Source: a virus. Taken from it: DNA of 64,000 nt. Shown here in pieces: positions 4,595 through 26,549 of this stretch (within the stretch, counting starts at the first letter, position 1; every line of letters starts with the position of its first letter). A program made the translations under genes and the position numbers. The DNA lies in IMG/VR virus record IMGVR_UViG_3300028920_000064, positions 13,441-77,440 of that record; one strand, given 5' to 3'. The notes beneath the pieces are model-generated. The model was not told the origin of the DNA. It was given only the letters and a program-made list of their open reading frames with translations, and searched no databases.

Positions 4595-7500
4595 TTATTG
4601 GCCCCTTTGCGCTCTCTCTATTGCCTTTAATTCTGCTGCTTCCTTATTAAAATCCCTTGGCCTTCCGGTTTCGGGGTCAATTGATTCCTCAAGTGCTTTC
4701 CTCAAATCTGCCGCCACCTGTAAAACTATTGCCCCCTGCTGATCCTTTAGTGCGTTATCGGCTTGAACATTCTGGTCGAAATACCCATTCAATACATTCC
4801 TGAAAGCCGCATAGTGGCCCTCGTATCTGAGGTGCGGGTATCTCTTATACAAATTTATTAAATATTGCACATCAACAGATCCGTAAATCTGAGGATCCTT
4901 GTACAATCCTGTGTCATCCAGCTGCAGGGCCACTCTCCGGTTAGGCTCTCCCATTATTGGGGCGTATTCAAATGCGCCTATGGGATATTCAGCATAAGTG
5001 GAGAACTGCGAGAATAGGAAAGCATCCAACATCCTTGCGTCAATAAAGGGATTGTCCTCTGACCGCCAGGTGACATAATCTGATCCTTCCTGTATCATTC
5101 TGGAAAACTTGCTTGCATTTTGGGTTTCCCTGGACACAATGGCCACATCCCTCTCCTCTGGGGGAATGATATGCTTCTGTCGGTAAAGATCATAGTTTGT
5201 GGCCCAATTGATAAATCCTGAGAACCCACTGGTCACACCGCTTACGCTGTATGGATTCAGGTTCTGAATTGCTGACCACCAGAAGCCATCGCCAAAAGCG
5301 TCTTTGTCCTTCAATATAACACGGTCCATACCTCTTTGTGCAATAGATCCTATACGTCCCAGTTCAAAAGGCTTTGGCACGATGATCCATCCACGACCAA
5401 AAGGATTGGGAAGCCTGTAAAATCCATCTCTCAGGTAATTGGGATGAGTCAAATACTCTTCTTTCTCATCATCTGATATCCATGGTGCCCAGGCTATCAG
5501 CATTGAGTTCATAATAGAGGGCATGATGGAGAATAGTGCAAGATGTCCCAAGAACCGTCCCGGGCTCTTCTTTGCTACCCTCACAATCTTCTCAACGCCT
5601 CTGACAGCGGCGCTGGTGAATATCATAAACTTATTCAACTCACGCACAACTGTTCCTGCTGCAGCAAAATCCATGAGATCCCTTGCGATAAACGCTGCCC
5701 TGGCTGATGCCTCAACGTGGGATAGCCCATATTTCTTAATCCCCTCCTGGTAGGCTGACATATACTGCAATCTACGAGTAGGGCGTTCGCTCATGTTTAG
5801 CTGCTTCCTGGCAAACTGGAAACCTTTCCCCACCAGGGTATATGTCGTACCTGGCCGGCCTCTTTTCTTGGCCTGTAGCATATACTGATGATGAGGCAGC
5901 TTGCTTTCTTTTCTTGCATTGATGCCGACAATCTGTTTACGTGGGACAAATCCGAACTGGCCACCACCATACCTTTCAAAGCCGTTATCTGCATCCTTAT
6001 TGGGTAGCAGGTGCCAAGGTCTTGAATATCTTTTTGCAGTGCCAATCACTGACCACTGAAGAAGGTCTCGGATCATGTTCCTGTTCACAAAACGAACTGA
6101 CCTGGTAATCGCCTTGCGTAATAACTGAGGGGCAAAAGAGATAATCTTCATTGCAAGACCATCCTCTGAAGATATAAGGTCCTTCCAGTTATTGTATAGG
6201 TATTTATCCCCAAATACAAGGAACCTTTTTTCTCCGTTTTGGTAAAAAGCTATGCTGTTAGGTTCTGCTTTTTTGGAAACCCATGCGATCTCACCCTGCT
6301 TCACAACCTCTCCCTCATACATATCCCTGCCAACCCAATCTCTTTCAAACACATCGGCAAAGGTTTGAACCGTGTAGTTCATGTCCCCCACATCGATCAC
6401 GTTTATCCAGGACCTGATAAGGTTGGACACTGGGTTATCAATGGGCCTGTCGCTTCCTTTAAAGGGAAATACGACATCCCTGGGGAGTAATCCTTTCCCG
6501 GATGGCCTTCTGTTTTCTTCAAACTCAAGATCCTTGCCGGCCACCATGTCTGCAGGCTCAATAGCCTGAAGCCTGTTCATGCCCACATAGTCCAGGTTCT
6601 CGTTCTGTATAAGATCCTTGGTGTACTCAGAGATCAAGCCGGCCTGGTAAGCATAGTTGGACCATTGCTTGCTGATCTCTCTATATATTCGCCAAAACTC
6701 GGTGATACCTTCAAAAAGCTCCGGATTATTTGCCTTAACCTCTTCAAACTCTTTGAGTGTTTCAACAGCGATATCATAATCTCTTTGTCCGGATTGAGCA
6801 GCACCTGTTATAACTATGTTGGTGAAATCATAACGCCCCTCCTCGCCTTTCGGGTCGATCCAAACCTTCTCCGGATCCAGCTTACCCTCATCGATGCGGG
6901 TAAGGATATCATTTATCTTCCCCTGCCACATTTCTATGATATGGGGATGCTGTGCCAATAGCTTCAGTGGTGGTAGCCGATCCTCTGTGTTTTCCAAATC
7001 AAACCTGATCAATCTTGCCTGGTATTTCTTTGGCAATTCAACAGCCCTTTGAGCAATGCCATACTTCATAGCTTCAACTACATTGGCCTCGTATTCAGCG
7101 TCTGAATGCCCGGGGATAGCTTCGTACATTGAATCAAAAATCAATGGCCGGCCCGTTTTTGAATCGTAAATAGGGGTCCCATCAAGATCCATCACGCCCC
7201 TTTTCATAAGATTTTCCAACTTAACATCGATGCCCAGGTGGTTCCTGGCCATGATCTCAAAGTTTCTCAGTGGAGACAGTTGATTGGGATCATGGATATC
7301 CTTAATTCCTTTCTGCTTCGCTGCGTATTTGAAAGCCTCAACAAGTGGGTCAAGGAAGTACCATATCCTCCTTCCCATCTTATCAAATATGGTTACTTTG
7401 AACTGGCCCTGCTCGTTTTCCCTGTTCCATTCAGTTTTTTGCCTTCCCTCTGTGGGATCCAGGCGAACATTGGCCAATAACTGATCCCCGGCTGAGGATC

Positions 7501-10500
7501 CGTAAAGAGTCCTGATATCCTTACCGAACTGAACCAGACCATCCCATACCTTTTTCTCTGGCATAAGCTGTGATGAGAACCATTTGTAAGTGGTGGGGAA
7601 CCTTTTCTCTGCTTCATTTGGGTTCACAAGCCATGCCCGGGTAAACTCAGCCATGCCCTCAGCCATCTTGTATCTCTCTGGATTCTTATGCCCCCGGGGA
7701 GGCTTGCTTCCAAATTCCCAAAGATCTCTCAGTTCTGATTTGAGTTCAGAGTAAATAGGGTAAGCCTTGGGGCCAAGCAATCCATACTTGTCATCAAGGT
7801 AGTGGCCTATCTCATGTGCCGCTGTATCCTCATCACCAAACCTCTTGATACCCATCTTACCAGTGGTGGGATCATACGCTCCTGCCGCCCTTCTGGTGGA
7901 TGGCCTACGGGTATATTGAATTTTCTTTCCAATAGCATTGGAAACATCGTCCTGGATCTCCCACAGCTTCTTCGGGCTTTTCCCTTTCTCCGGAGTTATT
8001 GGGTCAGGTGCCACTCGGCCTTTGGTGGTCCTGTATATCATGCCAATTGGCTCATTATGGGGATTGGATAACCCTCCCCTGTCCACTGCTCCGGTACGTG
8101 GCGGTGCGCCATACTCGTCCATAGTGTTTGAGGCATCGGTCTGGTCCATGGCTCTTTGCACTTGCTTGCTGCTTGATTCAATGGTCAGCTTGAACCGTTC
8201 GTCAAGAACATTCAGTAAAGGCTGTAGTGCATCCTCATTGAACTTTGCTACCATGCGATCATTTTTCTGCTCAAACAGGCCATAGTCCACAATAGACTTG
8301 ATCACCTCGTTAGCATAATACTTGGATCCGCGCTTGGTAGAGGCGGGAACCCTCAACTCATATAGCTGTGGAGAGCTGTAAGTCAGCTTCTTTATCAACA
8401 CATCCTTCGACATATCCTCAACCATGTCGTATGGAGCCAGGGCCTTGATGATGCTGGCAGCTTTCTTTATAGGTATCCTGGCCGTATTCTCAGTATCATT
8501 GATCCAGTTCTCAGGCATCAGTATACCTCTTTCAAGGCTACCGTCAGCCATGGAGAATTTAATCAATCGACCTTTCTTAAACTTAGTCATCCCTTGAAGG
8601 ATGTTTCCGGTCACGATATACCTTTTCTCCCTGGTCCTTTTCTTTTTGATATCATCCCAGGTGTCGAGTATTTCCTGTGACTCCCTGGTTCCAAGATGGT
8701 AGCTGTTTCCCCTGATGGCATCCAGGTGTACGCTTTTACTGACAGGTATCCTGAACATCCTGCGGCTATCAGTGGTAGCAAATTTCAACAACACATTGCT
8801 CGGGACCCAGGGGTTGTCCTTCTTCATGTTCACATCATAACCGATAAACACTCCTTTGTTCATGCGAACCATGTCCAGCTGATCATCCTCAGTGAATGGG
8901 ATCTCCAATCCTCTTCCGGGATAGAAGAAATCGAAATAGGATTTGAACTTTGATTTATGCAAAAGCGCAACAGATCTCAGCGTATCGATGCGATCCGCTT
9001 CACGCTGATCAATCTCGTTCTTTTTTAACTCATATTCCCGGGACTTCTCCTCCGGTGTCAATCCCGACTTCTCCTCTATCTTCTTTTTCTGTAAGGTCCT
9101 GGCCTCATTGGAGCTTTCTGTAACTTTTGCAATCTGCTTGGCCAGCTGCTCATCGATCCCCTTATCCATGGCTGCCCTCATTTCCTCAACATGATTATCC
9201 GGAACCTCATCCAGCTTTTCCATCAACTGCTCTCGGGTAAAAGGCTTCCTGGTCACATTGACATCTGATTTATTCAATACAGTGTCATCGCCAAAATATG
9301 AATATCCTCCTTCGCCATCAATAGAAACTTCACTCTCCACAAACTCGGCATCCAAGGACTCATTGGTCACCATCAAATCGTTGGTGCCGGTGCTGTTCAG
9401 ATAGTCTATCTCTTGCAGGTATCTCTCCTCTACCTCGTTCTTAAACTCCTCCTGTAGTTCAGAGGGGAGAATTTGTATCCTTCCGGATACTCGGTGTGCT
9501 GCATCCTGCTTGTTGGGATCCTTGCCTCCAATATTCAGGGGATCACCTATCAGCTGATTGATTTGCGGATTATCTTTCAGATACTCATATACCACATTGT
9601 CACCATACTTGTTCAGGAAATCAACAACATCCGCCAGGCTCTTGCTCTGCTTCTGATTTCCGGATGTGTTGGCATCAAGTGATTTCAGCTTCTTGGCATT
9701 CATCATAAAGTTCCTCAACTCTGCTGGGAGCGTTGAGGTAGCGATATTGTAAATCGGCTTATTCAGCTGATCTGCCCGATAAACCCTACCGAACAGCTGA
9801 ACCACCACATTGATATCGAAATCGTTTTGCAGTGTCCACATGGTCCTTTGACTCACATCGTCAAAGTCTGGCGATGAGTGCATGGAGATACCAGTAGATC
9901 CTGCCTTATTTACAATGGCCGCCACCCCTGGATTGTTGTTAAACCTGGCCACGGCCTTGATCTTATCTCCCCTGTCATTCGTTACCCAGGTTCCCTTGGT
10001 CTCGTCTGCATTCATCTCAAACATACTGCCACGGCCAGTAATTTCAACTACCTCAAACCCTGCATCTGTGATTCCTTTTTTCAATACATCGATGGGAGAT
10101 ATAGGTATGCCGGTTGACATCCTTTGGATGTTTTCCATCATGGTATAATATCGATCTCTTCCGGTGGGTGTGAGATCCTCCGGTTCAAGCATCTTCTTGA
10201 GATCGTTGCCCTGCTCGTCTTTCTCGGTATATTTCATTACCGTATCCATCCCCCTCTTCAGGACATAGGAGAAATCCAAGTCTATAGTTTCCCCCTTTTT
10301 CAGTTCATCGTTATTAAACATATCCAGGAAGATGCTCTCCATGGTGCTTTTTAAAGCGATAACCGGTTTCCGGCCTGCTTTCAAATCCTCAACGATCATT
10401 GGTATGGCCTCTCTCACCTTCACTGATAGTAATAGCTGATCGATGACATTCCATATACGGCTGAAGTATGGCTGATTTGATATACCTGCCTGGCTTGTGC

Positions 10501-13500
10501 CGGCTCTCTCTCCTACCTGCCTACCTTCACGCTTAACCTGTTCGTTCATTTCCTGCAGGACAGGATTAATATAATCCCTCTGGAACTTAATGATCTCCCG
10601 TAGCACACTGGTTACATTGTCAAATCTTTGAACCATCTGCTTGCCCAGCTCGGGGTTATATGATTTTTGTGAGGGATCAGTATCGCCAATAACGATATAA
10701 TTCATTTCAGCATCCATCCGGAAGCCTATCTTGCTGAACTGTCCTGACTCTGCCAGCTGGTGAGTTATGATCTCCTGCAGGGCAGGACCACCGGCGATGA
10801 TACCATCTACTAATTCCTCAAGGGACATATTTGCCTCCTGGAGAACGGTTTTCATTGCATAAAGAGGCATGTTATCAGGACGCTTGGCATAGGTCGCTGA
10901 CAAGAATATACCTCCATTGGTGTTCAGGATCCACTCTTTGAAAAACTCCCCGGTATTGCTCTGCCCGCTGGCCTCATGGCTCTCGTCCATTATGAACACT
11001 ACATCGTGATCCCTGGTTAGCTGCCTCAAGAAGTCTCGCTTGGCATCATCCCTTCCCTCTGTGGTGAACTGGGAATAGGATGTCATTACCATTTTCACAT
11101 CACTGGGAAGTTTACGGGATCCAGGCTTATCAGGTGTACCAACGATCCTTCTTAACTCTTTGAAATCAGCCTCCCACTTTGCTTCTCCTTCTTTGTCAAA
11201 TACCTTCACCTTCTGTCCTGAACTGGAAAACTGCTTGTTCATTATAAAAGGCTTGTAATTGGGGGACCCGATGTTAACCAGGTCCCGATAAATATCGGTA
11301 AACAGATCAGCGCCTTTGGTGATAAATACTGGCAGCTTGCCGTTCTCAACAGCATACCTCACAACTGATGCTGCAATTCTTCCCTTGCCGGCACCGGTCT
11401 GATGGCCGATGATCATCGCATTGTTCCCTTCAATATTGTAAATAGCCTGGCCAATACCATCTATTTGCTCGGCAAAATTGCCTGTTGCCTTCATATCGTC
11501 CATGCTGTTGTACTTCAGCTTGGCCCGAACGTATTCATCAATATCTCCGATCTCATCACTCAGCTGCTTCAGTGCATCCTGTACCTCAGCTGCTATTGAT
11601 GCAGGGATCACAAATTTGCCTGACCCCATCCTGCTCAAAGGAGTGTATGGAGTAACATCATCAGAAGAGATGTCCTCTATACCAAGCTCTCGCTTACTAC
11701 TCTCATCAGGCTTTCCAATGTTGTTTGTTGGTAAATCGAGCGCACTTCGCGTGGGTCGAACTTCTCCAAATCTTCTAATTTCTCCCCTTCGTCCCGTCTG
11801 ATCAGTTCCACCAAATGATTTTGGAATTGTGGACTTCGCATTATCTGTTCTGCTTGCCCTGGTACGTCCGGCTCCGGGATCAGGTCTAGTAAATCTTGGA
11901 TTAATGAACGCCTCATCTCCAGCGGCTCCTTGCTCAGGAGGGATTCCAGTTTCTTCTGAAACAGTCTGATCAGATCCGGGACGCTCTGTGGTTGGGTTTG
12001 GGTCGGTTTCTCTACCGCCCACAAGCGAATCAGATCCTCGCTCGGCATCCACTTCTCTTTGTAAGCTATTCCTTTCATTCGCTTTAGTTTTTAGGATGTT
12101 AATTCTGTCACGTACATCTATCCAATCAGTAACAGGGTCAAATGATTTGTTGTAGAGTGGGGCTGCACCTTTCTTCTCTGTCTTACGGCCATTGACCAAT
12201 ATCAGCTTTACAGGATAACTTGCGCCCATGGTTTTATACAGATCCCCAGGAATCTGTATCACATCCTCAACGTAATAATTCTTGTTCAGCCAGTTGAAAA
12301 ACGCCAGGTCTTTCCCAAGCATCTGATCGTTGGGTTTGAACTTCACATGGCCACCGGTAATGATAGCCGCTTTCCCTGTATCGCTTAATGATTTAAGAGC
12401 ATGGGCAACAGGCAGGTATTCACCATGTAGCCAGTACCCTTCAAAATCTTCGGTCCTGCCACCGAAAGGAGGATTGATATGGACAGCATCCACGGTTCTT
12501 ACATCCAGCTGATCCTGGATCCCCCGGGTGCTGTCCACATTAAACACCCGATATCCTTGCTCAATGAGGTTTTGCCAACGCCCTTTGTCAATCTCATTGG
12601 CCCGCACTCCTTTTCTGTTTGCTGTGATCAACAAAGCACCGTTGCCGGCACTGGGATCCATGACATTATCAACATCCTTTGCATTGGTATATTCACCCAT
12701 AAGAAAAGCCAGGGGAACGGGAGTGCTGTATTGTTGCTTCTCCTTGATCTCATTGGTCCGGTATGATAGAGTGGGGAACGTGGTATACAATTCCTGGATT
12801 CGTGAAAATTTCTCATCGCTGGTCAGTGTCTCATCCATAGCGATGGTTCGGGCCACCTCAACCATGGCCACTTCTGCCCTCTCACGAATGTTTGTCTTGT
12901 TGGTAACGCCCCACTTTTTTGCAATAGCTGTTAGCTCCCTGAAATCAGCAATCGGCTCTCCATTCCATATCCGGTTCTTCACCTCCCAGGTAAATGCTCT
13001 TTGACGTACCAGGTTATGCTTTTCCTCAGTTTCATCTAAAATCTCTGAGAAATACTTTACTGATTTAGCTAGCTTCTCTTTTGAGGCGAACTTATATCCT
13101 TTTGCCAATGATCTCGCATGAGACCCTATGCCATACATGGCCATAATGGGCGATGTCGGATAGAACCTGTCATGCAGATATCTTATCTCGCTGATTCCAT
13201 TGTTGGTAAATCCCAGCTGGGCAAGGATCTTGTGATGATCGTTTGTCAGCCTCACAAGCCTATCCAGGTCCTCTTTTTTGGCATGTTGGAGTATAAATGG
13301 TGTCAACGGCTCACCTCGCTTGACATAACTTTCTAGCAGCTCTAAAACGGTCTCCTGGGTCCAATCTGTCTCAACAGGTATGGGGGTGAACATAACCTTT
13401 CCTGAAAGGATATCGTTCTTCCTTCTTTCATACTCAGCTGCTTTTTGTTTGTTGGCGATATCCTCCTTCCAATCAACCTCTGCCTGAAAGTAGGATCTCG

Positions 13501-16500
13501 GTTGCCTGTACATCTGCTTCTCAAGTCGTTCGGCCTGGTCCATTTGACCGATAGATTTGTAGATGTCAATGATCTTGCTCAGTTCATCCCTGTATTCTTT
13601 GTTGTCATACGGGGGAACTTCCTCTGCTTTTCCCTCAACGATGAGTTCACGGAACTTATCAACTATGACCGCCTTCTTCGACTCTCCCCGGATAGACATG
13701 GGATCCTCCATGATGGCCACAGTTAGCTTATCGAACTGTGCCGGTGCCTCCCCGAACAGCCCCCCTAAATCTTTTACTCGCTGATCTCGGGGATCAGTCC
13801 ATTCCTCCACCCTTACGATCTTGAGTTCTTTGGAGAGTTCAGGGATGTAAAATACTTTTCCTACTATATCGGAATATGGATCCTGTGCCGGTATCTCCGT
13901 CTGTCCCGCCGCCTCGCTGCCGGCTGTGGCCTTTGATTGATCAAGCGCATCGATCTCCCTGTTCAACGCTTCTATCTCTGCATCAAAAGGTTGTAATGCT
14001 TTCTTAATGTTTTCTTCAGTAGGCTCAAAGGTTTCATCGAACATCACCGGGGCATTGGGATCGGCCTTGGTGTCACCAAACAATCCTTTGCGGTCAGTCA
14101 GTTCAGCATACTTTTTCTGTTTCTGCTTCTGAATGTCCTGGATCTTCTCACGTTTCTCAGTGATCTTATCCTCAATCTCCTTGGTTACCCTTTCCCTTTC
14201 CCTTCTGTTTTCTGCCGGACTTGCTCTTTCACCGACTCCACGATCAGGGCGTTCTTCGCCAAGCTCTGCTTCGACAGCTGCCCTGGCTGCTTCTTGTTCC
14301 TTGATTTCATCTTCAATGTTTTTAAGGTACTGGTCTTTTTCTGCTTCAGTCAATAGGCCCATTTCAACAGCTGCATCCACGTTGTTAGGAGCCAGGTCAC
14401 CATATTGCATGGTGAATTTTTCAAGATTTGCATCACCAATGGTGCTTAAAACCTTATTTATAGGAACGCCTACCGGTGGGGTGTTCCTGGTTTGCCTAAT
14501 GTTCAACACACCTTGGTTGTATGCCAAATCCAGGAAGTTCAATAACTTATTGGCGGCAACAGTGTTCTTGCCGGCTTTGATGTTTTTGACAGCAGATTGT
14601 ATCTGTCTTTTATCCAGCCAGACATCAGCCCCCTCAAGGTATTCGGGGTTATCCATTAATTTGTTGACGAAATCAATGAACCCGGGATCCTCGTATTCTT
14701 CCAGTGTTTTCTGCGCATCGATCTCCTCCTGGGTTACCTTATCGGCTATCCTTCGTATGGGCTTACCCTCTTTATCCCGTACAGTCAGATCCCCTTTCTC
14801 AGTTTTAATGGTATAGCCAAGCTCATTTACTGCCCTTCCTATGTACTGATAAAGATCTGCCCTTTTCTGAGTGTAACTTTTGGGGAGATTGTTGTATTTC
14901 TCAACAAAGTCAATCACAGCATTATGCCTGTTCACTCTGATTTTCTCGTCATACTCAGCTTTTAAAGCCTCATCTTTTTCGGTTTGCTTTTCCTTCTCCT
15001 TCTTAACCTTTTCAGCAGCTTCCGGATAAAGCTCATTGAAGATTGCGCTTACCCTTTCAAGCATGGCTGCTCCTTGATACTTGTCTGTATCAATCCAGAT
15101 CTCTTTCTCTGGAATATAATCTTTGGTTTGTGATGTTGCGCTGTCCTCAAAGGTGGGATCCACCATGCGCCTCATCTCCTCACCACTTACCATTATTGTC
15201 TTTACATCGTTTGGAAGGGATAGTGCTTGATATTCTTGCTTGGTTACCAGCTTTTCTATGTTCTCAGGCTGAACGCCCTCTGCCGGTTCCTCTTCTACTG
15301 GCGGTTCCTCTACGGGGGCCTCCTCCTCTATTGGAGTTGTGAGATCTTCGGTTAAAACATTCTTGATATGCTCACGGATGGTGATATCGGGATCAATCTC
15401 TTCCTCCCTTGCCCGGGAAATATCATCCCACACATACAGCATTGCGTTGTCAAACTCTGTCTGAGTGAGATCCGGAGCAAGTTCTCTGATGGTTTTTTCA
15501 ATATCCCCCTGGATCTGCGCTGCATAATCACCTACCTCTTTCTGCCAATCTTCAGCCAGGATCTCTGCGGCTCGGTTCATGTTGCGAAGTTCCTGGTCTA
15601 GCTTCTTGCGCTCTTTCTTCTGTTCTAGTGTTAATCGGCCTTTGAACTCGGTATCCAGGCGTTTCTGAATAGCTTCACGATCCTTGGTGATCTCCTCCAC
15701 TTTGGATGCAACTTCATCCTCTCTGGCCACGAAACGAGCATTCAGGTCCTTCAGCTTTTCATTCAGAATTTCTTTTGGTTTCCCAAAAACTGTTTCAACC
15801 TCTTCCTCAACCACGGGTTCCTCTGTAGGTTCTTCGGGTGCCGGCTCTTCTTTTGCCTTCCGGATCTCCTTTGCTTTCTCAATGGCCCTTACCACATCGA
15901 TGTCCATGTCGGGTAATGGAAGCCTTTCGGTGGGGTATTTCGCCAATTCTTCAGCAAGATCTTCTATACTGGCAAAGTCCCGGCCACCATACCTGATCAT
16001 CCCTTCCTCTTTCTTAGGAAGGGCTTTCCTTTCTTCCAATGCCTGCTCGGTTACGGCCAGAGCTTCTAGCACATCAGCCCTGATTATGGGGATATCCTCA
16101 ACATTCTTGATAGTCCGTTTATCCCTGCCAAGTATTTGAATCACATTTTGAACATCCAGGTTCAAATCTTCATTTTTGATATCCCCTGTACGTCCTTCTT
16201 CATACATGGCATCAAGGGTCTGGATGATATTCTTTGCAACATCCTGCCTTTCCCTTAACTGGGCCTCATTCATAAATTGAGTATCGAAGGTCCATGGCTT
16301 TGTCTCATCCACCTCAACCTCTACCTTCGGTGCCGGTTCTTCTTCTACTGGGGGTTCCTCAGCAGGGGGCTCCTCTTCAACTGGCTCAGGCTCTACAGGA
16401 GGTTCTTCCGGAACGGGTTCAGGTTCAGGTTCAGGTTCAGGTTCGGGCTCAGGCTCTGGTTCAACAGGCTCTTCTACGGGTGGCTCGGGAGGTTCAACAG

Positions 16501-17899
16501 GCTCAAGGGGTTCTCCCTCTTTCTTTCGGGTTGCAATATCAACTCCCTTGATAGCCACACCGCCGGCAGTAAAGTATGCACCACCAGCGAATCCTGCCCA
16601 AAATGAATCCCAGGCATTGTCCATGGGTTCAGCGTCGGGCCTTACGCCTGTGTGTTTATCAACAATATTTTCTCCGACAGCATTGATAAATTCCTCCGCA
16701 CCCTCTTGAACAGGTGCTGTCCATAGACCTACCTTTCTGTAGGTTGCCATCATCCAGGATCTCAATCCGGTTTCAAGCACCTCTTTTGTAGCATCTTTCC
16801 CGATAGTCTTTATAGATGCTTTTATCAGATTACCAAGACCCTGAGTGCTAAGTTCTGTCAGTGACTCAAGTGTGCCTGTCAAAGCCGCATTAAGTATGGC
16901 TGCCCCCTCCGGGGTTTCAGCCTCGATCAGCCTTTCATATTTTTCCCCTCCAACGTATAACCCCAATGAAGCAAGTCCCGGTGCGCCACCGAATGCTGCA
17001 ACTATTGTAAGTGGTAAACTTTCGGCACCTTCAAGAACAGCTGCGCCAACAGCTTCCTTTTTGTTCCCGTCATTCCATAGTTCAGTTATGGTTTTATCAT
17101 ACCGCTTACTGCGGTCCAGGAACATCTTTTCCCTTTCTTCCCAATTCTTGTAGTAGTTGGTGCGGGTATCAATAAGGTTCTTGACATCGTTGGATGCTTT
17201 TAATGTTTGCACCGGTCCTAGCGCACCAAACCCCATTTCCTCTACAATCTCTCCAACCTTATCCGCTTTCCCCGGGTCTATGCCCAGTTTCTTCAGTTCC
17301 CACGTAAACACTTTCCCCGGGACGGTCAATAGCTTTTCCGCAAACTTGGAACCTTTCTTGGAATATTCTGGTAGCTTGGAAACCCCAGCCAGGATCCTCT
17401 CTCCCAAATCACCCATGAAAGATTCTTTGGCAGGCTGCCCTTCCTCTCCCGGTAAGGGTGCCAATAAGCCCTGTGGCTCTCCCTCTGGCATGAGCATCGT
17501 CATGGCATCTTTTGTGTCAAGATCCTCTGTAGACTTGGGAGGTTCGCCTTTAGGCCAATCCATAGGGGGCTTGGGGGCTTCTGGTATGTAATCCTCAAAC
17601 GAAGGAATAGGGAAAGGATCTGCCGGCTGTACCGGAGGAGGAAACTTTTCTTGAAGATATTTTGCCCTAGCTGATTCAATCTGTACCTGATCGGCTCCTT
17701 CCTCTGCTTCAATAGGGGCCAGGTATTTATCAAAATACTTGTTAAGCCTATCTTCCTTTTCCTCATCAGAAGCCTGCTGGTATGTCGGATCGTTAAGCAT
17801 CATGTTCTCATAGAACTTGGCTCTTTCACGTTTCGACAAACCCCTGTCCTGTGTGGTGGGGTTATAATCAGGCTTCTTTACAGTTTCTTTCTTTCCCAT
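4595..17899 (-). CDS. Giant polyvalent (DarB-like) putative ejected protein: N6-adenine MTase + Strawberry-notch SF2 helicase + zincin + LPD38-like domain
   Basis: MTase motifs DPSAGNG (~12650) and NPPFG (~12470). Helicase motifs GHQTGAGKGR (~11390), DESH (~10980), SATYAKRP and QLFGRVYR. HEIGH...AEGMAE (~7810). PKPFELG (~5370). Hydrophobic Gly/Ala N-terminal region and a PE-rich linker. Confidence 0.85.
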   Translation of the reverse strand: MGKKETVKKPDYNPTTQDRGLSKRERAKFYENMMLNDPTYQQASDEEKEDRLNKYFDKYLAPIEAEEGADQVQIESARAKYLQEKFPPPVQPADPFPIPSFEDYIPEAPKPPMDWPKGEPPKSTEDLDTKDAMTMLMPEGEPQGLLAPLPGEEGQPAKESFMGDLGERILAGVSKLPEYSKKGSKFAEKLLTVPGKVFTWELKKLGIDPGKADKVGEIVEEMGFGALGPVQTLKASNDVKNLIDTRTNYYKNWEEREKMFLDRSKRYDKTITELWNDGNKKEAVGAAVLEGAESLPLTIVAAFGGAPGLASLGLYVGGEKYERLIEAETPEGAAILNAALTGTLESLTELSTQGLGNLIKASIKTIGKDATKEVLETGLRSWMMATYRKVGLWTAPVQEGAEEFINAVGENIVDKHTGVRPDAEPMDNAWDSFWAGFAGGAYFTAGGVAIKGVDIATRKKEGEPLEPVEPPEPPVEEPVEPEPEPEPEPEPEPEPVPEEPPVEPEPVEEEPPAEEPPVEEEPAPKVEVEVDETKPWTFDTQFMNEAQLRERQDVAKNIIQTLDAMYEEGRTGDIKNEDLNLDVQNVIQILGRDKRTIKNVEDIPIIRADVLEALAVTEQALEERKALPKKEEGMIRYGGRDFASIEDLAEELAKYPTERLPLPDMDIDVVRAIEKAKEIRKAKEEPAPEEPTEEPVVEEEVETVFGKPKEILNEKLKDLNARFVAREDEVASKVEEITKDREAIQKRLDTEFKGRLTLEQKKERKKLDQELRNMNRAAEILAEDWQKEVGDYAAQIQGDIEKTIRELAPDLTQTEFDNAMLYVWDDISRAREEEIDPDITIREHIKNVLTEDLTTPIEEEAPVEEPPVEEEPAEGVQPENIEKLVTKQEYQALSLPNDVKTIMVSGEEMRRMVDPTFEDSATSQTKDYIPEKEIWIDTDKYQGAAMLERVSAIFNELYPEAAEKVKKEKEKQTEKDEALKAEYDEKIRVNRHNAVIDFVEKYNNLPKSYTQKRADLYQYIGRAVNELGYTIKTEKGDLTVRDKEGKPIRRIADKVTQEEIDAQKTLEEYEDPGFIDFVNKLMDNPEYLEGADVWLDKRQIQSAVKNIKAGKNTVAANKLLNFLDLAYNQGVLNIRQTRNTPPVGVPINKVLSTIGDANLEKFTMQYGDLAPNNVDAAVEMGLLTEAEKDQYLKNIEDEIKEQEAARAAVEAELGEERPDRGVGERASPAENRRERERVTKEIEDKITEKREKIQDIQKQKQKKYAELTDRKGLFGDTKADPNAPVMFDETFEPTEENIKKALQPFDAEIEALNREIDALDQSKATAGSEAAGQTEIPAQDPYSDIVGKVFYIPELSKELKIVRVEEWTDPRDQRVKDLGGLFGEAPAQFDKLTVAIMEDPMSIRGESKKAVIVDKFRELIVEGKAEEVPPYDNKEYRDELSKIIDIYKSIGQMDQAERLEKQMYRQPRSYFQAEVDWKEDIANKQKAAEYERRKNDILSGKVMFTPIPVETDWTQETVLELLESYVKRGEPLTPFILQHAKKEDLDRLVRLTNDHHKILAQLGFTNNGISEIRYLHDRFYPTSPIMAMYGIGSHARSLAKGYKFASKEKLAKSVKYFSEILDETEEKHNLVRQRAFTWEVKNRIWNGEPIADFRELTAIAKKWGVTNKTNIRERAEVAMVEVARTIAMDETLTSDEKFSRIQELYTTFPTLSYRTNEIKEKQQYSTPVPLAFLMGEYTNAKDVDNVMDPSAGNGALLITANRKGVRANEIDKGRWQNLIEQGYRVFNVDSTRGIQDQLDVRTVDAVHINPPFGGRTEDFEGYWLHGEYLPVAHALKSLSDTGKAAIITGGHVKFKPNDQMLGKDLAFFNWLNKNYYVEDVIQIPGDLYKTMGASYPVKLILVNGRKTEKKGAAPLYNKSFDPVTDWIDVRDRINILKTKANERNSLQREVDAERGSDSLVGGRETDPNPTTERPGSDQTVSEETGIPPEQGAAGDEAFINPRFTRPDPGAGRTRASRTDNAKSTIPKSFGGTDQTGRRGEIRRFGEVRPTRSALDLPTNNIGKPDESSKRELGIEDISSDDVTPYTPLSRMGSGKFVIPASIAAEVQDALKQLSDEIGDIDEYVRAKLKYNSMDDMKATGNFAEQIDGIGQAIYNIEGNNAMIIGHQTGAGKGRIAASVVRYAVENGKLPVFITKGADLFTDIYRDLVNIGSPNYKPFIMNKQFSSSGQKVKVFDKEGEAKWEADFKELRRIVGTPDKPGSRKLPSDVKMVMTSYSQFTTEGRDDAKRDFLRQLTRDHDVVFIMDESHEASGQSNTGEFFKEWILNTNGGIFLSATYAKRPDNMPLYAMKTVLQEANMSLEELVDGIIAGGPALQEIITHQLAESGQFSKIGFRMDAEMNYIVIGDTDPSQKSYNPELGKQMVQRFDNVTSVLREIIKFQRDYINPVLQEMNEQVKREGRQVGERAGTSQAGISNQPYFSRIWNVIDQLLLSVKVREAIPMIVEDLKAGRKPVIALKSTMESIFLDMFNNDELKKGETIDLDFSYVLKRGMDTVMKYTEKDEQGNDLKKMLEPEDLTPTGRDRYYTMMENIQRMSTGIPISPIDVLKKGITDAGFEVVEITGRGSMFEMNADETKGTWVTNDRGDKIKAVARFNNNPGVAAIVNKAGSTGISMHSSPDFDDVSQRTMWTLQNDFDINVVVQLFGRVYRADQLNKPIYNIATSTLPAELRNFMMNAKKLKSLDANTSGNQKQSKSLADVVDFLNKYGDNVVYEYLKDNPQINQLIGDPLNIGGKDPNKQDAAHRVSGRIQILPSELQEEFKNEVEERYLQEIDYLNSTGTNDLMVTNESLDAEFVESEVSIDGEGGYSYFGDDTVLNKSDVNVTRKPFTREQLMEKLDEVPDNHVEEMRAAMDKGIDEQLAKQIAKVTESSNEARTLQKKKIEEKSGLTPEEKSREYELKKNEIDQREADRIDTLRSVALLHKSKFKSYFDFFYPGRGLEIPFTEDDQLDMVRMNKGVFIGYDVNMKKDNPWVPSNVLLKFATTDSRRMFRIPVSKSVHLDAIRGNSYHLGTRESQEILDTWDDIKKKRTREKRYIVTGNILQGMTKFKKGRLIKFSMADGSLERGILMPENWINDTENTARIPIKKAASIIKALAPYDMVEDMSKDVLIKKLTYSSPQLYELRVPASTKRGSKYYANEVIKSIVDYGLFEQKNDRMVAKFNEDALQPLLNVLDERFKLTIESSSKQVQRAMDQTDASNTMDEYGAPPRTGAVDRGGLSNPHNEPIGMIYRTTKGRVAPDPITPEKGKSPKKLWEIQDDVSNAIGKKIQYTRRPSTRRAAGAYDPTTGKMGIKRFGDEDTAAHEIGHYLDDKYGLLGPKAYPIYSELKSELRDLWEFGSKPPRGHKNPERYKMAEGMAEFTRAWLVNPNEAEKRFPTTYKWFSSQLMPEKKVWDGLVQFGKDIRTLYGSSAGDQLLANVRLDPTEGRQKTEWNRENEQGQFKVTIFDKMGRRIWYFLDPLVEAFKYAAKQKGIKDIHDPNQLSPLRNFEIMARNHLGIDVKLENLMKRGVMDLDGTPIYDSKTGRPLIFDSMYEAIPGHSDAEYEANVVEAMKYGIAQRAVELPKKYQARLIRFDLENTEDRLPPLKLLAQHPHIIEMWQGKINDILTRIDEGKLDPEKVWIDPKGEEGRYDFTNIVITGAAQSGQRDYDIAVETLKEFEEVKANNPELFEGITEFWRIYREISKQWSNYAYQAGLISEYTKDLIQNENLDYVGMNRLQAIEPADMVAGKDLEFEENRRPSGKGLLPRDVVFPFKGSDRPIDNPVSNLIRSWINVIDVGDMNYTVQTFADVFERDWVGRDMYEGEVVKQGEIAWVSKKAEPNSIAFYQNGEKRFLVFGDKYLYNNWKDLISSEDGLAMKIISFAPQLLRKAITRSVRFVNRNMIRDLLQWSVIGTAKRYSRPWHLLPNKDADNGFERYGGGQFGFVPRKQIVGINARKESKLPHHQYMLQAKKRGRPGTTYTLVGKGFQFARKQLNMSERPTRRLQYMSAYQEGIKKYGLSHVEASARAAFIARDLMDFAAAGTVVRELNKFMIFTSAAVRGVEKIVRVAKKSPGRFLGHLALFSIMPSIMNSMLIAWAPWISDDEKEEYLTHPNYLRDGFYRLPNPFGRGWIIVPKPFELGRIGSIAQRGMDRVILKDKDAFGDGFWWSAIQNLNPYSVSGVTSGFSGFINWATNYDLYRQKHIIPPEERDVAIVSRETQNASKFSRMIQEGSDYVTWRSEDNPFIDARMLDAFLFSQFSTYAEYPIGAFEYAPIMGEPNRRVALQLDDTGLYKDPQIYGSVDVQYLINLYKRYPHLRYEGHYAAFRNVLNGYFDQNVQADNALKDQQGAIVLQVAADLRKALEESIDPETGRPRDFNKEAAELKAIERAQRGQ
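16416..16457. repeat. Hexamer tandem repeat (GGTTCA)n encoding a (PE)n linker
   Basis: ggttcaggttcaggttcaggttcaggttcgggctcaggctc within the giant ORF. Confidence 0.85.
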
Positions 17900-17910
17900 T
17901 GATCTAAATG

Positions 17911-19539: not shown

Positions 19540-19557
19540 GAGTGTTGATTTTTTACA

Positions 19558-20223
19558 TTAAGACATTATTCCACCTGCAATATCCATTATTTTACCAAAG
19601 GTCCCGCCAGTGAAAACATTGCCAAGCTGTTGGGCGGTTGCGTCAAGTGCGCCACCCATGCCTTGAAATGATTCAGCCCATGACCCCATCTTGGTTTTTA
19701 AACCTTCCCACTCTCCCTGCCGGCCCTGCTGTTCAAGCATTGCTGCTTTCTGCTGCGCCATAAGGTAAGGGTCAGCCTCGTTCCAATTCCATGCTTGCTG
19801 CTGCCATTGACCAAGCCCCTCTAAGGCCCCCAGGTACTGATCCTCTGCTTGGTTCCTGAACTGTGCATTTGTCACACCCAGGTTTGCAGTAGTATCCATT
19901 TGGTTTGCATAGAGATCTGCAATACCTCCGAAAGCCTCAGCACCGGTACCCATCTCTTTCATGGCTTCTACCCCTCCGGCAGTGGCTTTTTGAATTTGGT
20001 TTTGCATTGTAGTTAGACCGGGCATATTTTGAAACCTTTTACCACTGGCCAGCTCCATCATCATCTGTATGGCTTGCGGTGTTTGCATCTCCGGGCGCTG
20101 GAAAGACTGCGACAAGGATCTTGCCTCGTCAATCATGCCCTGCCCCAACTGCATTTGTTTCTTGCCCAAACGGGAACCCTGGATCCCGGCACCGATGTTT
20201 CCTAAGAATGAGAATATACCCAT
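19558..20223 (-). CDS. Putative DNA-transfer/pilot (cargo) protein
   Basis: G/A/Q/M-rich helical protein starting MGIFSFLGNIGAGIQG, immediately after the muzzle gene. Confidence 0.6.
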   Translation of the reverse strand: MGIFSFLGNIGAGIQGSRLGKKQMQLGQGMIDEARSLSQSFQRPEMQTPQAIQMMMELASGKRFQNMPGLTTMQNQIQKATAGGVEAMKEMGTGAEAFGGIADLYANQMDTTANLGVTNAQFRNQAEDQYLGALEGLGQWQQQAWNWNEADPYLMAQQKAAMLEQQGRQGEWEGLKTKMGSWAESFQGMGGALDATAQQLGNVFTGGTFGKIMDIAGGIMS

Positions 20224-20239
20224 GATATCATAATTTTAA

Positions 20240-23200
20240 TTATTGACTTCTTTCACTTGGCCGCGACAAAACGGCTATGTTCGATATTGTTATCTTATCT
20301 GTCAGAGCGCCTGAGTTTTGCACAAGCATATCTACCCGCAAATACAAACCTCTCATATTGCGGCCATTCATTTCTTTTTGGCTCTGTGTTCCAGGCCCGG
20401 GAGTGTTGATGTCATTCAGGATCTGGCAGTAAAATACCCCTTCCCGTTCTTCGATGTTCACATCATATATGTTCGTCTCCATCTCACCGGATCCCGCTGT
20501 GGCTTTTGCAGGAACAGTCACGCTGTTAAACTGTGGCCGGCCACCCGTCATATAGGCATGGATGGCTTTGAATATCTTCACCTTCATGGGGTTTTGGTTG
20601 GCATAAAACACCAGGTTTGGTGTCCTCACAACGCCAGTAAGGGTATTGTAATCAGTCCCTGCCCACCACTGATAAACAGTATTCAGGTTTGTCTGATATA
20701 ATTTTCGGCCAAACCAATACATCACACCTCTTTCAAAATTCACATCCAACTGATTCTTCCACCTCTGCTCCCTCTCGCTGTAAGTGATAACTTCTTGTGT
20801 ATTGGATCCTGTTCCGAAGAGGCAGAACAACTCATCTGTCACCTTTGAATATCCAAACTGAACCCACACGTTATGTTGATCACCATAGGCTTTCAGGGCA
20901 TTTGCCTTATCGATGAAATACCTTTTCATCTTCCTGTCACTGATCACCTCAATGCCGTTTGCCGCGTCCCTGATAACGGCTCCCTCTCCCTCGTCCCAAA
21001 AGTACAGGTGACGGTCATGGACTATGACACTATCCGGATGCCTTGTCCCGTAATTCTCCATTGCAGGACGCACTGATCCAAATACTTTGTCTGTAAATAG
21101 GTACTGAGCCTCACCAGAGGCTTTAAAGGACTCTTGCCGGCTTATGTATATACTTACAGGCTTGGTGTACTGTAAGACCTTTAAAACGAATCCTACGAGC
21201 CTCATGCTCTCAATAGGCCCATATTCATCTTTGAGATCCAGGTAATCGTCAAACTCAAACTCCGCTATCTGGTTCAGCTGAGATCCTATGTTCACTTTCC
21301 CTCCATGTCTCAGTCTCTTTGTCAGAACATTTTGCTGCTGGCTATCGATATCGGGGATTGGGTTTCCCTGGGATGTGAGCTGATTGGTGAAGTAAAAATC
21401 AGAGGCATACTGGCTCTCTACCCATATAGCAAAGTTCACATCGTCATCTACGTTCCGGAAGTTCCGGAGGTATTTCCAATTATCGTGTGATGTGTTGACC
21501 ACGGAAGCGGGCGTTGATGGCTGGCCGCCGGCAGTCAGGACCTGATCAACATTACCTTTGTGAAACTTGTTCCCATAGATGTCAGTCCCTATCTCAAATG
21601 TCATTCCGGTGGTAAAATACAAGTTCGACTCTGTAGTGAAGGGCCTGTAGATCTCCACCAACAGGTTATCTGGCCAGGCATTAGGAGGCCCAGCTGTGGA
21701 GGGAACAAAGGATGGTAGATTATCATTAACCGGGAAGTATATCCATTCACTCTGGATCTCCGTGCTATCATGCGGATCGTCACCTATTGTGCTTGCCTGT
21801 TCATAATCAGTAAACACGGCCATTATCTCCACATCGTAAATCGCGTCGTTGATCTCTGTAAGCACTCCCGCTCCGCTGACCTTCCCGATGATCCGGATCC
21901 TGTCTCCTTTCTCCCACACATATTCCTCAACAGACCAGTTTAAAAGGTTATCCCTGGTGTTGGCCTGCGCCTTCTTGATCCTCAATCGGAAGTATTCATC
22001 CCAGGACACAAAGGCGGATGAGTCTGTATGGTTCTTTTTACCCTGTGCAAAATTATATCCCAACAGCTGTAGGTGCCATGAGGTAGACTTGTTGCCTGCA
22101 TACACGATCTCGTAGCTGGCTGCCTGTGGAGGGGGTAAATGATTTAACTCAAAAGTGATTATGGGCTTACGACCCACATTGCTTGATGTGTTCTCGGTGG
22201 GAAATGGGATGTATGTTGTCATCTCATCTGTCCCGATCAGCGGTGTGATCCTCCCTACAATATCCCGGTAGATGATGGCCCAGGCGTGTGTAGCGCCCGT
22301 CTTGAGCATTGGCACCTTATCTACATAGGTGACGCTGTTTCTCTCATAAAAGAACTCATATTCCCATAACACATAGGGCCTGTTGAATGTAGATGCCTGT
22401 CTTGGAAAGGCGCAGAAGGTGTATGCAGATGGTGTGAAGCAGGTATCTACCTCCCCAGCCCATACCGTGTTGACAGCTCCACTGATGCCGGCCACGGCTG
22501 CTGACGGATATGAATCCGTCCCATTGTAGACGTATGAGGCTGTGGTCCATGGGTCTGATGACTGGAATTTTATTCTGACCTTGAACTCACAAGCGCCCGG
22601 GTTTGTTGTTGGAAGGGTGAATCTGAGCAGGAAATCAAATATGTCCTCACTCACCCACCTGGCAATATCCAGGACGTTGAGGTTGACAGTTTGAAAGGTT
22701 ATCCCTGACAGGTCCTCCCATGAAAGATCAATGTCTACCTGGGATCCTATCCTGCTATATCCCTCTGTGATATTCCCAAAAGCCAGTATGTTCCCTTCGA
22801 TCAGCTCCATGTGTTTTGCCCGGATGGGAACATAATGGAACAGATTGAAAACATCAGCTGAGGGGACAACGGCACCGGCTTTATCATTATAGAAATACAC
22901 ATACAGCGCCTCATTTGCTGGCAGTATCCTGTAATTCTTGTCATTGACTACATAAATCTCATCGATGATGAACCAGGTTGAGGGATCCTCTGATGTCCTG
23001 GCCACTATACGAATCGATCTGACTTGCTCGTTGCCGGTATTGACCTGTAACCGAATCGTGTTGTTGTGTGCGGGGTCTGTTTCCGGATCGCCAAAGACCG
23101 TTTCTTCTTGCGAAGGTGCCGGCACAAAGCTCGGAGGGGCAAATGTACTCTTCCTGTAATCCATGTAGATATACTGGTAAGAGAACTGCCATGTCTTTCC

Positions 23201-23986
23201 TTTCAGCTGATTTACAGCCACCGATGGTGTTGGAAGATATTCTGCTGTTGCGGCAATCAACGGGGGTAGTGCGGCAAGTGTAAAGTTGTTTGGATCCACG
23301 GGATCCAGGTATACATCAACCACCAACTCAATAGGATCATAATAGGTAGGGGCCAGGTCGGGAGTGGTAGAAACACCCGTTGTGCTTTGCAGGACCTCAT
23401 AAACATAGTCCAGGTAATAGATGAAATCACCGGCTGAATATCCGGGGCTGTTGGCATAAGCCGCCTCCCAGTAAGAAACCGCTGAATCAATCCCTGCATC
23501 CCACGTTCTCTCCATCTTCTCCATATCCATCTGCCGTATGTCATTCACGTTGTCAGTGAAGATTAGCCGGCCATCAACGATCCGTGGGTTGTAAAACTTC
23601 TGTTTGTCTGAGTCCCATGCTTTTATATTCCATGTGGCAGCAAGTCCCTGGAACACTATCTTGAAAGTGTTGTTCAAGATATCGTGCTTGATGATCACAA
23701 ACTGCCCAACGCTTGATACCTCGCCATAAGCCAGGATATATGCCCTGTCGTTCTCCTCATCCTTCGCTATCCCCAGGTGGAGCCAGTTGGTTGTTGTCCC
23801 TCCCATGTTTGGAAGGGTGAGTGCTAAGTGTGATTTGACAGAAGATAACAATCCCCCATCTCCTTGCTCCTGTGTTGGGCTGGTGTGTAGGTTTCGTAAT
23901 TCCTCATAATCTCCCTGCTCAAAGTGCCTGGGATCGTCATCGGTGTTAAGGCCACCTATGGGTATGATATCTTCTCTCTGTTGCAT
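20240..23986 (-). CDS. Tail stabilisation / muzzle protein (P22 gp10-like, crAss-type)
   Basis: N-terminal GGLNTDDDPR, then LIFTDNVNDIRQ, VPIRAKHMELIEGNILAFGN and C-terminal GRNMRG, as in crAss-type stabilisation proteins. Follows the ring genes. Confidence 0.8.
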   Translation of the reverse strand: MQQREDIIPIGGLNTDDDPRHFEQGDYEELRNLHTSPTQEQGDGGLLSSVKSHLALTLPNMGGTTTNWLHLGIAKDEENDRAYILAYGEVSSVGQFVIIKHDILNNTFKIVFQGLAATWNIKAWDSDKQKFYNPRIVDGRLIFTDNVNDIRQMDMEKMERTWDAGIDSAVSYWEAAYANSPGYSAGDFIYYLDYVYEVLQSTTGVSTTPDLAPTYYDPIELVVDVYLDPVDPNNFTLAALPPLIAATAEYLPTPSVAVNQLKGKTWQFSYQYIYMDYRKSTFAPPSFVPAPSQEETVFGDPETDPAHNNTIRLQVNTGNEQVRSIRIVARTSEDPSTWFIIDEIYVVNDKNYRILPANEALYVYFYNDKAGAVVPSADVFNLFHYVPIRAKHMELIEGNILAFGNITEGYSRIGSQVDIDLSWEDLSGITFQTVNLNVLDIARWVSEDIFDFLLRFTLPTTNPGACEFKVRIKFQSSDPWTTASYVYNGTDSYPSAAVAGISGAVNTVWAGEVDTCFTPSAYTFCAFPRQASTFNRPYVLWEYEFFYERNSVTYVDKVPMLKTGATHAWAIIYRDIVGRITPLIGTDEMTTYIPFPTENTSSNVGRKPIITFELNHLPPPQAASYEIVYAGNKSTSWHLQLLGYNFAQGKKNHTDSSAFVSWDEYFRLRIKKAQANTRDNLLNWSVEEYVWEKGDRIRIIGKVSGAGVLTEINDAIYDVEIMAVFTDYEQASTIGDDPHDSTEIQSEWIYFPVNDNLPSFVPSTAGPPNAWPDNLLVEIYRPFTTESNLYFTTGMTFEIGTDIYGNKFHKGNVDQVLTAGGQPSTPASVVNTSHDNWKYLRNFRNVDDDVNFAIWVESQYASDFYFTNQLTSQGNPIPDIDSQQQNVLTKRLRHGGKVNIGSQLNQIAEFEFDDYLDLKDEYGPIESMRLVGFVLKVLQYTKPVSIYISRQESFKASGEAQYLFTDKVFGSVRPAMENYGTRHPDSVIVHDRHLYFWDEGEGAVIRDAANGIEVISDRKMKRYFIDKANALKAYGDQHNVWVQFGYSKVTDELFCLFGTGSNTQEVITYSEREQRWKNQLDVNFERGVMYWFGRKLYQTNLNTVYQWWAGTDYNTLTGVVRTPNLVFYANQNPMKVKIFKAIHAYMTGGRPQFNSVTVPAKATAGSGEMETNIYDVNIEEREGVFYCQILNDINTPGPGTQSQKEMNGRNMRGLYLRVDMLVQNSGALTDKITISNIAVLSRPSERSQ

Positions 23987-25525: not shown

Positions 25526-25527
25526 GA

Positions 25528-25826: not shown

Positions 25827-25841
25827 GATATCATGTTTAAG

Positions 25842-26546: not shown

Positions 26547-26549
26547 TTG

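Follow-up and report, generated by a model that had tools for sequence, protein, structure and literature searches.

The IMG/VR record IMGVR_UViG_3300028920_000064 is a linear genome of 77,440 bp, rated 100% complete by CheckV, from an uncultured short-tailed phage. In the 64-kb stretch of it that was analyzed here (the window), the last large gene behind a muzzle-like tail gene encodes a single protein of 4434 amino acids (aa), hereafter the giant. We propose that the giant is a polyvalent cargo protein, in which a conserved delivery frame carries a DarB-like payload core, and that it is likely injected into the host to blunt restriction. We put the probability of this reading at roughly 0.65.

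The enzymatic content of the giant was determined from Pfam matches and motif positions. An N6_Mtase domain (residues 1713-1918, E-value 1.6e-7) is followed by a ResIII/AAA_34 match (residues 2139-2388), by Helicase_C_4, the C-terminal domain of Strawberry-notch (Sno) proteins (residues 2616-2775, 2.3e-19), and by LPD38 (PF18857; residues 4147-4274, 1.9e-12, 48.1 bits against a cut-off of 27), where phrog_9854 also matches (1.4e-23). The characteristic motifs lie at residues 1748 (DPSAGNG), 1809 (NPPF), 2169 (GAGKG), 2305 (DESH) and 3362 (HEIGH). The N6-adenine methyltransferase, Sno-type helicase, HExxH zincin and LPD38 that an earlier sequence-only reading of this DNA had assigned to the protein are therefore all present, with every motif that it quoted. 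In an alignment of eight sequences (38-69% identity to the protein of the window), H3362, E3363 and H3366 are invariant, and the helicase motifs are near-invariant among the relatives. The AlphaFold2 (AF2) models cover residues 1000-1930 and 2985-4184, both largely helical with short sheets only, and the Sno helicase match (residues 2139-2775) spans most of the interval between them (1930-2985). Foldseek aligned the model of the giant to whole HsdM chains over 440-490 columns; one domain filled each of the VIA and Foldseek lists for the two models, so that the other parts were barely tested by them. Sequence searches of the PDB with the giant alone, with its 8-sequence profile, with the 1248-aa muzzle-like protein and with a 6-sequence muzzle profile gave nothing meaningful, and Pfam gave no match for the N-terminal module of the giant.

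Judged from its sequence, the giant is a scaffold, made of this N-terminal module (N-module, ~220 aa) and a C-terminal part with the zincin, a helical region and LPD38, into which a payload of ~2700 aa has been inserted. A filter-free phmmer search of 1.84e9 representatives matched the N-module in 310 clusters, always near the N-terminus, in proteins of up to 5776 aa. A hidden Markov model (HMM) of the module matched the proteins that occupy the same slot in Maribacter phage Panino (1829 aa, 2e-24), the Cellulophaga phage phi38:1 (gp101, 1e-15) and Elemovirus (gp18, 1e-13), and it matched no protein of the crassvirus phi14:2. Among 96 long N-module proteins, 23 have an LPD38 region, 15 have the helical region before LPD38 (region Y) and only two have the methylase/Sno cassette. 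In one protein of 1852 aa without cysteine (P0120, HEIGH at 852), the N-module is joined to the zincin-helical-LPD38 end (positions 3356-4457 of the giant-family HMM, 6e-138), and this protein is a frame from which the ~2700-aa payload is missing. The block from the methylase to the post-helicase domains (HMM positions 1676-3312), for its part, recurs in otherwise different giants, in IMG/VR loci L004-L008 and in gp3 of Bacteroides phage BS-TP4; the neighbours of the giants in these IMG/VR loci match no virion family of the clade to which the present phage belongs. In BFVD, the C-terminal 1200 aa of the giant matched the C-terminal parts of many entries that go under the name 'large polyvalent protein associated domain-containing protein' (for region Y, E-values down to 9e-18); the other parts of these entries carry RelA/SpoT, lytic transglycosylase or methylase domains. 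A large protein database contains 109 homologs in the full-length range (2.7-6.4 kaa), mostly on contigs of 55-80 kb, and homologs of the giant bear other polyvalent-protein domains, such as ART-PolyVal and InPase. Because the ends of the giant are homologous to the shorter slot proteins of its relatives, the methylase-helicase cassette is an insertion into a scaffold protein that already occupied the slot and not, as the sequence-only reading had it, a replacement of the occupant.

Cysteine (Cys) is absent from the giant and from the 542-aa and 221-aa proteins encoded just before it. Together they have no Cys in 5197 residues, where 33 would be expected (Poisson P 4e-15) from the 28 other window proteins tallied (89 Cys in 13,967 residues). 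No Cys occurs in the matching trios of phi38:1, Elemovirus and Panino either, the giant of Manatee Spring podovirus MW202828 has one, and the cargo proteins gp65-gp70 of phi14:2, proven by mass spectrometry, have six in 6990 residues. Cys is present in all of the muzzle, major capsid (MCP), portal and TerL proteins tallied. In other words, the three post-muzzle genes form one class set apart by the absence of Cys. This absence would fit proteins that are threaded unfolded through the tail and the cell envelope, and total Cys avoidance could serve as a simple compositional marker to predict ejected proteins.

The affiliation of the phage was analyzed with its virion genes. Significant phmmer matches to phi38:1, a member of the Pervagoviridae, were obtained with TerL (7e-37), portal (2e-50), MCP (1e-11), the muzzle-like protein (gp97, 4e-21) and the ring-like proteins (gp96, 7e-10; gp95, 1.8e-10), and TerL is 27-31% identical to those of Elemovirus, Panino and MW202828. 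All five phages have a common order of genes, namely GroES, TerL, portal, a ~400-aa gene and MCP, and further on ring, ring, muzzle, small genes, a ~200-aa gene, a ~500-aa gene and a large protein. On this evidence the phage belongs with Pervagoviridae, Elemovirus, Panino and MW202828 and is not a crassvirus. The gene order leading to the giant had been described correctly by the sequence-only reading: the open reading frames (ORFs) are all on the minus strand and run from two ring-like genes through the muzzle-like, 221-aa and 542-aa genes to the giant.

We also compared these genes with those of the Crassvirales. The crAss_MUZ_C model matched three of six clade members; it scored 1.4e-3 and 19.5 bits in the muzzle-like protein, below the Pfam cut-off of 27 bits, and 1.1e-18 and 67.9 bits in phi38:1 gp97, and the clade muzzle profile matched no crAss001 chain in the PDB. 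TerL, portal and MCP, which the sequence-only reading had expected to group near the Crassvirales, showed no significant similarity to their phi14:2 counterparts by phmmer or hhalign; in hhalign, alignments of five clade sequences against single phi14:2 proteins gave probabilities below 1%. The sole significant sequence link to crassviruses among the virion genes is the 308-aa gene directly after MCP (43750-44676; its family includes phi38:1 gp94), whose family matches phi14:2 gp90, likewise the gene after MCP (HMM E-value 3e-6). Evseev et al. (2023; PMC9855967) have reported that the MCP and TerL models of Pervagoviridae and Pachyviridae group with Crassvirales by structure, not by BLAST. In view of this structural grouping without BLAST similarity, the term 'crAss-like', which the sequence-only reading had used, is true only in a distant structural sense.

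The slot behind the muzzle was then considered in the relatives. The product of the last large gene has 1691 aa in phi38:1, 1829 in Panino, 3694 in Elemovirus and 3859 in MW202828, against 4434 in the present phage. Like the giant, phi38:1 gp101, Panino CDS0069 and Elemovirus gp18 are encoded by the last large gene after the muzzle, ~200-aa and ~500-aa genes, contain the N-module and lack Cys; unlike the giant, they are all without the methylase/Sno cassette. Their payloads differ, with a match to a tRNA-methyltransferase-like PHROG in Panino, DUF3293 in Elemovirus and no family in phi38:1 gp101. GenBank labels the slot proteins of the relatives as structural proteins. The cargo status that the sequence-only reading had proposed for the giant is likely, with indirect support from the virion-gene synteny, the absence of Cys and these labels.

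RNA polymerase (RNAP) was searched for in several ways. An HMM of the crass-type RNAP core, built from seven Crassvirales and run with filters off, found nothing in this genome (best E-value 8.5; phi14:2 as control, 0), nor in the complete phi38:1 genome (best E-value 4.1) or the sampled parts of the other relatives. The Pfam models of the cellular RNAP barrels (RNA_pol_Rpb1_2 and RNA_pol_Rpb2_6) had no match in the whole 77.4-kb genome. The T7/N4-type model RNA_pol had none either, but it was silent in all 14 control genomes too and has no weight here; PHROGs contains no family for the virion RNAP gp66 of phi14:2, so that a missing RNAP match in that collection is uninformative. No double-psi barrels were seen in the AF2 models (residues 1000-1930 and 2985-4184), the VIA and Foldseek lists contained neither an RNAP chain nor one with a double-psi barrel, and the only DxDxD of the giant (DMDID at 664) is unconserved and lies within its Pro/Glu-rich linker. 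The earlier statement that the giant has no two-barrel RNAP signature is thus upheld, and no RNAP was detected in the rest of this complete genome either. When phi14:2 gp66 was used in tblastn, 147 phage records were matched down to 22% identity, all of them Crassvirales-type by name or host. By the same tallies of name and host, none came from Pervagoviridae, Elemovirus, Panino or MW202828, in a collection that holds 68 Elemovirus genomes. In the nearest relatives, an identical order of genes leads to a protein of 1.7-3.9 kaa, and a gp66-like RNAP is missing; the absence of RNAP therefore appears to be clade-wide and not an event of this lineage. Host-type promoters, which had been cited as further evidence for reliance on the host polymerase, do not provide it: there are 29 copies of the Bacteroidota -7 motif TAnnTTTG, fewer than the 40 that shuffled sequence leads one to expect, and sigma-70-like sites occur at chance level (25 against 25.7 and 35 against 28.6 expected).

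Crassviruses keep their cargo behind the muzzle and eject it in a partly unfolded state; in crAss001 the muzzle is gp44, the cargo proteins are gp45 and gp46, and gp47, gp49 and gp50 are RNAP-associated (PMC10172136). In phi14:2, muzzle gp71 is followed by gp70, gp69, gp68, gp67 (1797 aa), RNAP gp66 (2180 aa) and gp65 (1421 aa), and gp65-gp70 were detected in virions by tandem mass spectrometry according to the record. These cargo blocks (crAss001 gp45-gp50; phi14:2 gp70-gp65) resemble the arrangement found here in that huge Cys-poor proteins, which in crassviruses are ejected, stand directly after the muzzle. A zincin occurs in both: phi14:2 gp70 has an HExxH motif and a weak match to the zincin of the giant (E-value 6e-3), and Carjivirus gp45 is annotated as 'fused to zincin protease'. 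They differ in that the two-barrel RNAP is present there and absent here, and in that the crassvirus block is split over several genes; moreover, neither the N-module nor the C-terminal frame of the giant has significant homology to phi14:2 gp65, gp66 or gp67. The sequence-only reading had equated the place of the giant with that of the RNAP gene. The RNAP genes of Crassvirales lie three to five genes past the muzzle, and the position of the giant is analogous to the crassvirus cargo block but not identical to the RNAP gene. We also noted that the RNAP genes of crassviruses reach giant size too (cr55_1, 4551 aa; cr50_1, 4774 aa, annotated 'DNA helicase'; Carjivirus gp44, 4070 aa; Fpv2, 4401 aa; loci L018, L019, L020 and L021), so that the crassvirus cargo block looks polyvalent too.

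If the giant is a polyvalent cargo protein, it would be made late, together with the virion proteins, and loaded with the 221-aa and 542-aa proteins into the capsid or the tail cargo space behind the muzzle. It would then be extruded unfolded through the tail, before or with the DNA, and the lack of Cys would keep it from being trapped by disulfide formation en route. Inside the cell, the zincin may cut it into working pieces. The payload core comprises an EcoKI/HsdM-type N6-adenine methylase, a Sno translocase and the two small post-helicase domains, and the methylase-motor unit might load on the entering genome, translocate along it, and methylate adenines or strip or block type I-like restriction complexes in cis. 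For transcription, the phage would depend on the RNA polymerase of its host.

Several points weigh against this proposal. At 503 kDa, the giant would be a very large protein to pass through a tail. Modification of progeny DNA, inside the cell that makes the phage, is an equally possible role for the methylase. The slot proteins of the relatives are called 'structural' by GenBank annotation; neither Nilsson 2020 nor the mSystems 2026 paper on phi38:1 contains proteomic evidence on the slot proteins, and the latter does not mention gp101. The N-module was undetectable by HMM in the 3859-aa slot protein of MW202828. In addition, the 542-aa protein has no significant similarity to phi38:1 gp100, and the 221-aa protein is colinear with phi38:1 gp99 at a BLASTP E-value of only 0.047.

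We therefore weighed other explanations. According to one, the giant is not packaged at all but works late in the cytoplasm, where it methylates progeny DNA processively ahead of packaging and thereby protects the virion DNA in advance. Its gene is co-transcribed with the late genes, so that the protein would be present at DNA replication and packaging, and a methylase with a translocase would suit processive modification. However, the complete avoidance of Cys is common only to the two preceding proteins and the proven crassvirus cargo, proteins with a virion-structural annotation have the same N-module/LPD38 frame, LPD38 is restricted to polyvalent proteins of the phage type, for which injection is predicted, and ~2700 further residues would be superfluous for a cytoplasmic methylase. 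We consider this explanation unlikely. Still less probable, in our view, is that the giant mainly serves as a structural part of an ejectosome, forming a conduit across the envelope as T7 gp15/gp16 or the P22 ejection proteins do, with the enzymes as secondary passengers. The structural match to such proteins is within the noise expected for helical proteins, and a conduit role is in any case compatible with, and not exclusive of, a polyvalent cargo protein.

The sequence-only reading had concluded that a crAss-like lineage, which once held a virion RNAP in the slot, swapped it for the methylase-helicase polyprotein. The positional analogy speaks for this, as in phi14:2 and crAss001 the muzzle is likewise followed by small cargo genes and then by giant RNAP-associated genes; so do the absence of any RNAP found in this genome and the structural clustering of the clade's MCP and TerL with Crassvirales (PMC9855967). 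However, no sampled relative has a gp66-like RNAP, and in all of them the slot is already taken by an N-module giant; the ends of the giant are homologous to these shorter slot proteins, which points to insertion of the cassette into an existing occupant, and no homology of the N-module or C-terminal frame to phi14:2 gp65-gp67 was found. A loss and a gain of RNAP, at the base of one clade or the other, would both be compatible with the data. With the whole clade devoid of RNAP and the frame protein in place, we regard a swap in this lineage as improbable.

A broader idea is possible, but we hold it only tentatively. In the sister clade of crassviruses (Pervagoviridae, Elemovirus, the Panino-like phages and the present lineage), the crass-type cargo space may serve as a general platform for the delivery of effectors, in which the Cys-free frame (N-module ... 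zincin-LPD38) addresses a swappable multi-enzyme payload into the host; on this view, the RNAP giants of crassviruses are one payload, a specialised one, of an ancestral system common to both. If this is true, the N-module protein clusters, at least 310 in number, would be a catalogue of injected phage effectors. The present case shows that a polymerase is not a necessary occupant of the slot that follows a crass-type muzzle; in the nearest described relatives of crassviruses this slot holds a modular Cys-free carrier whose enzymes differ by phage, in this one a DarB-like unit with a predicted anti-restriction role. This gives a concrete model of the injected content of abundant marine and gut Bacteroidota-type podophages, testable in phi38:1, Elemovirus, Panino and BS-TP4, and several hundred clusters to mine for injected counter-defence enzymes.

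Almost all genes of the window are on the minus strand. In the order of transcription, they begin with a 2125-aa leucine-rich repeat (LRR) protein and continue with the GroES-like gene, TerL (phrog_6681, 1e-75), portal (phrog_6547, 2e-63), a 404-aa protein, MCP (phrog_13704, 3.5e-30) and the 308-aa protein, after which come tail-fibre genes including a 2947-aa fibre. These are followed by a 171-aa gene, the ring-like 234-aa gene, a 208-aa gene, the ring-like 254-aa gene and the muzzle-like 1248-aa gene, and then by the 221-aa gene, the 542-aa gene, the 4434-aa ORF, three small genes and a terminator-like hairpin. The features of this region and of the giant are listed in the table.

Table. Features of the virion gene block and of the 4434-aa protein (window coordinates; residue numbers refer to the 4434-aa protein)
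Feature	Position	Strand	Basis or remark
Ring-like proteins (254 + 234 aa) with 208-aa and 171-aa genes	23986..27065	-	phrog_13977 and phrog_14543 'virion structural protein'
Ring-like protein, 234 aa	25842-26546	-	
Ring-like protein, 254 aa	23986-24750	-	
Muzzle-like protein, 1248 aa	20240..23986	-	phrog_14478, 7.5e-38; phmmer to phi38:1 gp97, 4e-21
221-aa Cys-free Gly-rich protein, positional counterpart of phi38:1 gp99	19558..20223	-	0 Cys
542-aa Cys-free protein, positional counterpart of phi38:1 gp100, the Panino 500-aa protein and crAss001 C2	17911..19539	-	Synteny; 0 Cys
4434-aa putative polyvalent cargo protein (503 kDa, pI 5.2, 0 Cys; 17% of genome)	4595..17899	-	
N-terminal module (about residues 250-470), a hallmark also of the relatives' slot proteins; contains two Gly/Ala-rich hydrophobic helices	16490..17152	-	Hydropathy peaks 283-317
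Pro/Glu-rich low-complexity linker (about 471-999)	14903..16489	-	Composition in 100-aa blocks
Mostly helical region 1000-1667, including a helical domain before the methylase (HsdM-N-like position)	12899..14902	-	AF2 model m137df1b3dce4, pLDDT 81
Gamma-class N6-adenine DNA methyltransferase (DPSAGNG, NPPF), EcoKI/HsdM-type	12110..12898	-	
Sno-type superfamily 2 (SF2) ATPase (GAGKG, DESH, Sno C-terminal domain)	9575..11485	-	Pfam and motifs
Post-helicase beta/alpha domains (2985-3245), travelling with the methylase-helicase cassette	8165..8947	-	
Zincin metallopeptidase (MPTase) domain (HEIGH 3362), probable self-processing MPTase	7550..8041	-	
Helical region Y (3470-4040) of the C-terminal scaffold	5780..7492	-	AF2
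LPD38 domain and hydrophobic segment (about 4116-4140)	5078..5461	-	Pfam, phrog_9854, hydropathy
Strong terminator-like hairpin (11-bp stem + T-run)	2716..2740	-	Closes the long virion operon three genes past the giant

Other genes were observed around these features. A DUF5675 protein (3786-4217, 9e-27) is encoded two genes downstream of the giant, in the same operon and ahead of the terminator, and is kept in the close relative L003. The 2947-aa tail fibre (27101-35944) has an intramolecular chaperone domain, Peptidase_S74, at its end (residues 2847-2907). Two paralogous small proteins (35946-36485 and 43234-43710) match the Pfam family Gp80, named after the fibre I protein of Ralstonia podophage GP4 (1e-19 and 8e-18), and also phrog_240, 'head protein'. 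The 2125-aa LRR protein (54273-60650), upstream of TerL, matches plant receptor kinases down to 2e-5 and a piece of phrog_14220, and is adjoined by a 171-aa FN3-like protein (53644-54159); it is probably a receptor-binding or surface protein, and its leucine-rich repeats led us to reject a polymerase identity. There are no tRNA genes in the window, compared with 16-19 in phi38:1 and Panino, and GroEL, which phi38:1, Panino and MW202828 encode, is absent from the window, where only the GroES-like gene was found. The remaining genome encodes RadC, PcfK, PcfJ, RecT, a YqaJ exonuclease, RusA and a primase. Of these, RadC (3e-40), PcfK (2e-34) and PcfJ (4e-32) form a plus-strand block outside the window (genome positions 293-3020; L001), at the opposite genome end from the giant, that resembles the leading/anti-defence region of Bacteroidota conjugative elements.

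Finally, we compared the giant with known systems. Iyer et al. (2017, J Bacteriol; PMC5512222) have described phage-type polyvalent proteins, in which the dyad of an adenine methylase and a SWI2/SNF2 ATPase is the third commonest element, with P1 DarB as its archetype. According to the same study, Strawberry-notch ATPases occur in these proteins only "in a few instances", LPD38 is found only in phages, in polyvalent proteins predicted to be injected, and a zincin MPTase cuts the polyprotein (PMC5512222). By its Pfam domains and predicted fold, the giant fits this already-described class: it has several unrelated catalytic domains on one polypeptide (methylase, Sno ATPase and zincin) in addition to LPD38, an EcoKI/TaqI-like adenine methylase N-terminal to an ATPase of the SF2/SWI2-SNF2 clade, a zincin-like MPTase with a predicted processing role, and a place among virion genes. 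It differs in the Strawberry-notch type of its ATPase, in its N-terminal module without a Pfam family and in the location of its gene behind a crass-type muzzle. The concept itself is therefore unchanged from that of Iyer et al. (2017), and what is added here is the crass-type muzzle context, the N-module family and the Cys signature.

In phages that have been cultured, the best match to the methylase-Sno cassette is gp3 of Bacteroides phage BS-TP4 (5391 aa, 'hypothetical protein', PQ571277.1; L023, 1511-17686), with 31.5% identity over about 1530 aa. Its gene adjoins the portal gene, and the virion module and the regions flanking the cassette differ from those of the giant; nevertheless, BS-TP4 provides a usable experimental model for the cassette. 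When residues 1650-4434 of the giant were searched by tblastn, no Burkholderia phage was among the 39 matches at E <= 1e-5.

The analogy with DarB that the sequence-only reading had drawn stands, as the giant contains the methylase-helicase dyad of which DarB is the archetype (PMC5512222). Going by the descriptions of the two proteins, both combine these two enzymes in one order and are predicted to follow a common logic, and Pfam reported no DarA-type domain in the giant. DarB is a virion-packaged methylase-helicase that protects incoming DNA in cis from type I restriction. It has about 2255 aa, and the giant is about twice that size. The two also differ in their setting, since DarB is carried in a myophage head with DarA/Hdf helpers, whereas the giant belongs to a podophage with a muzzle, has another delivery frame and has a motor of the Sno type.

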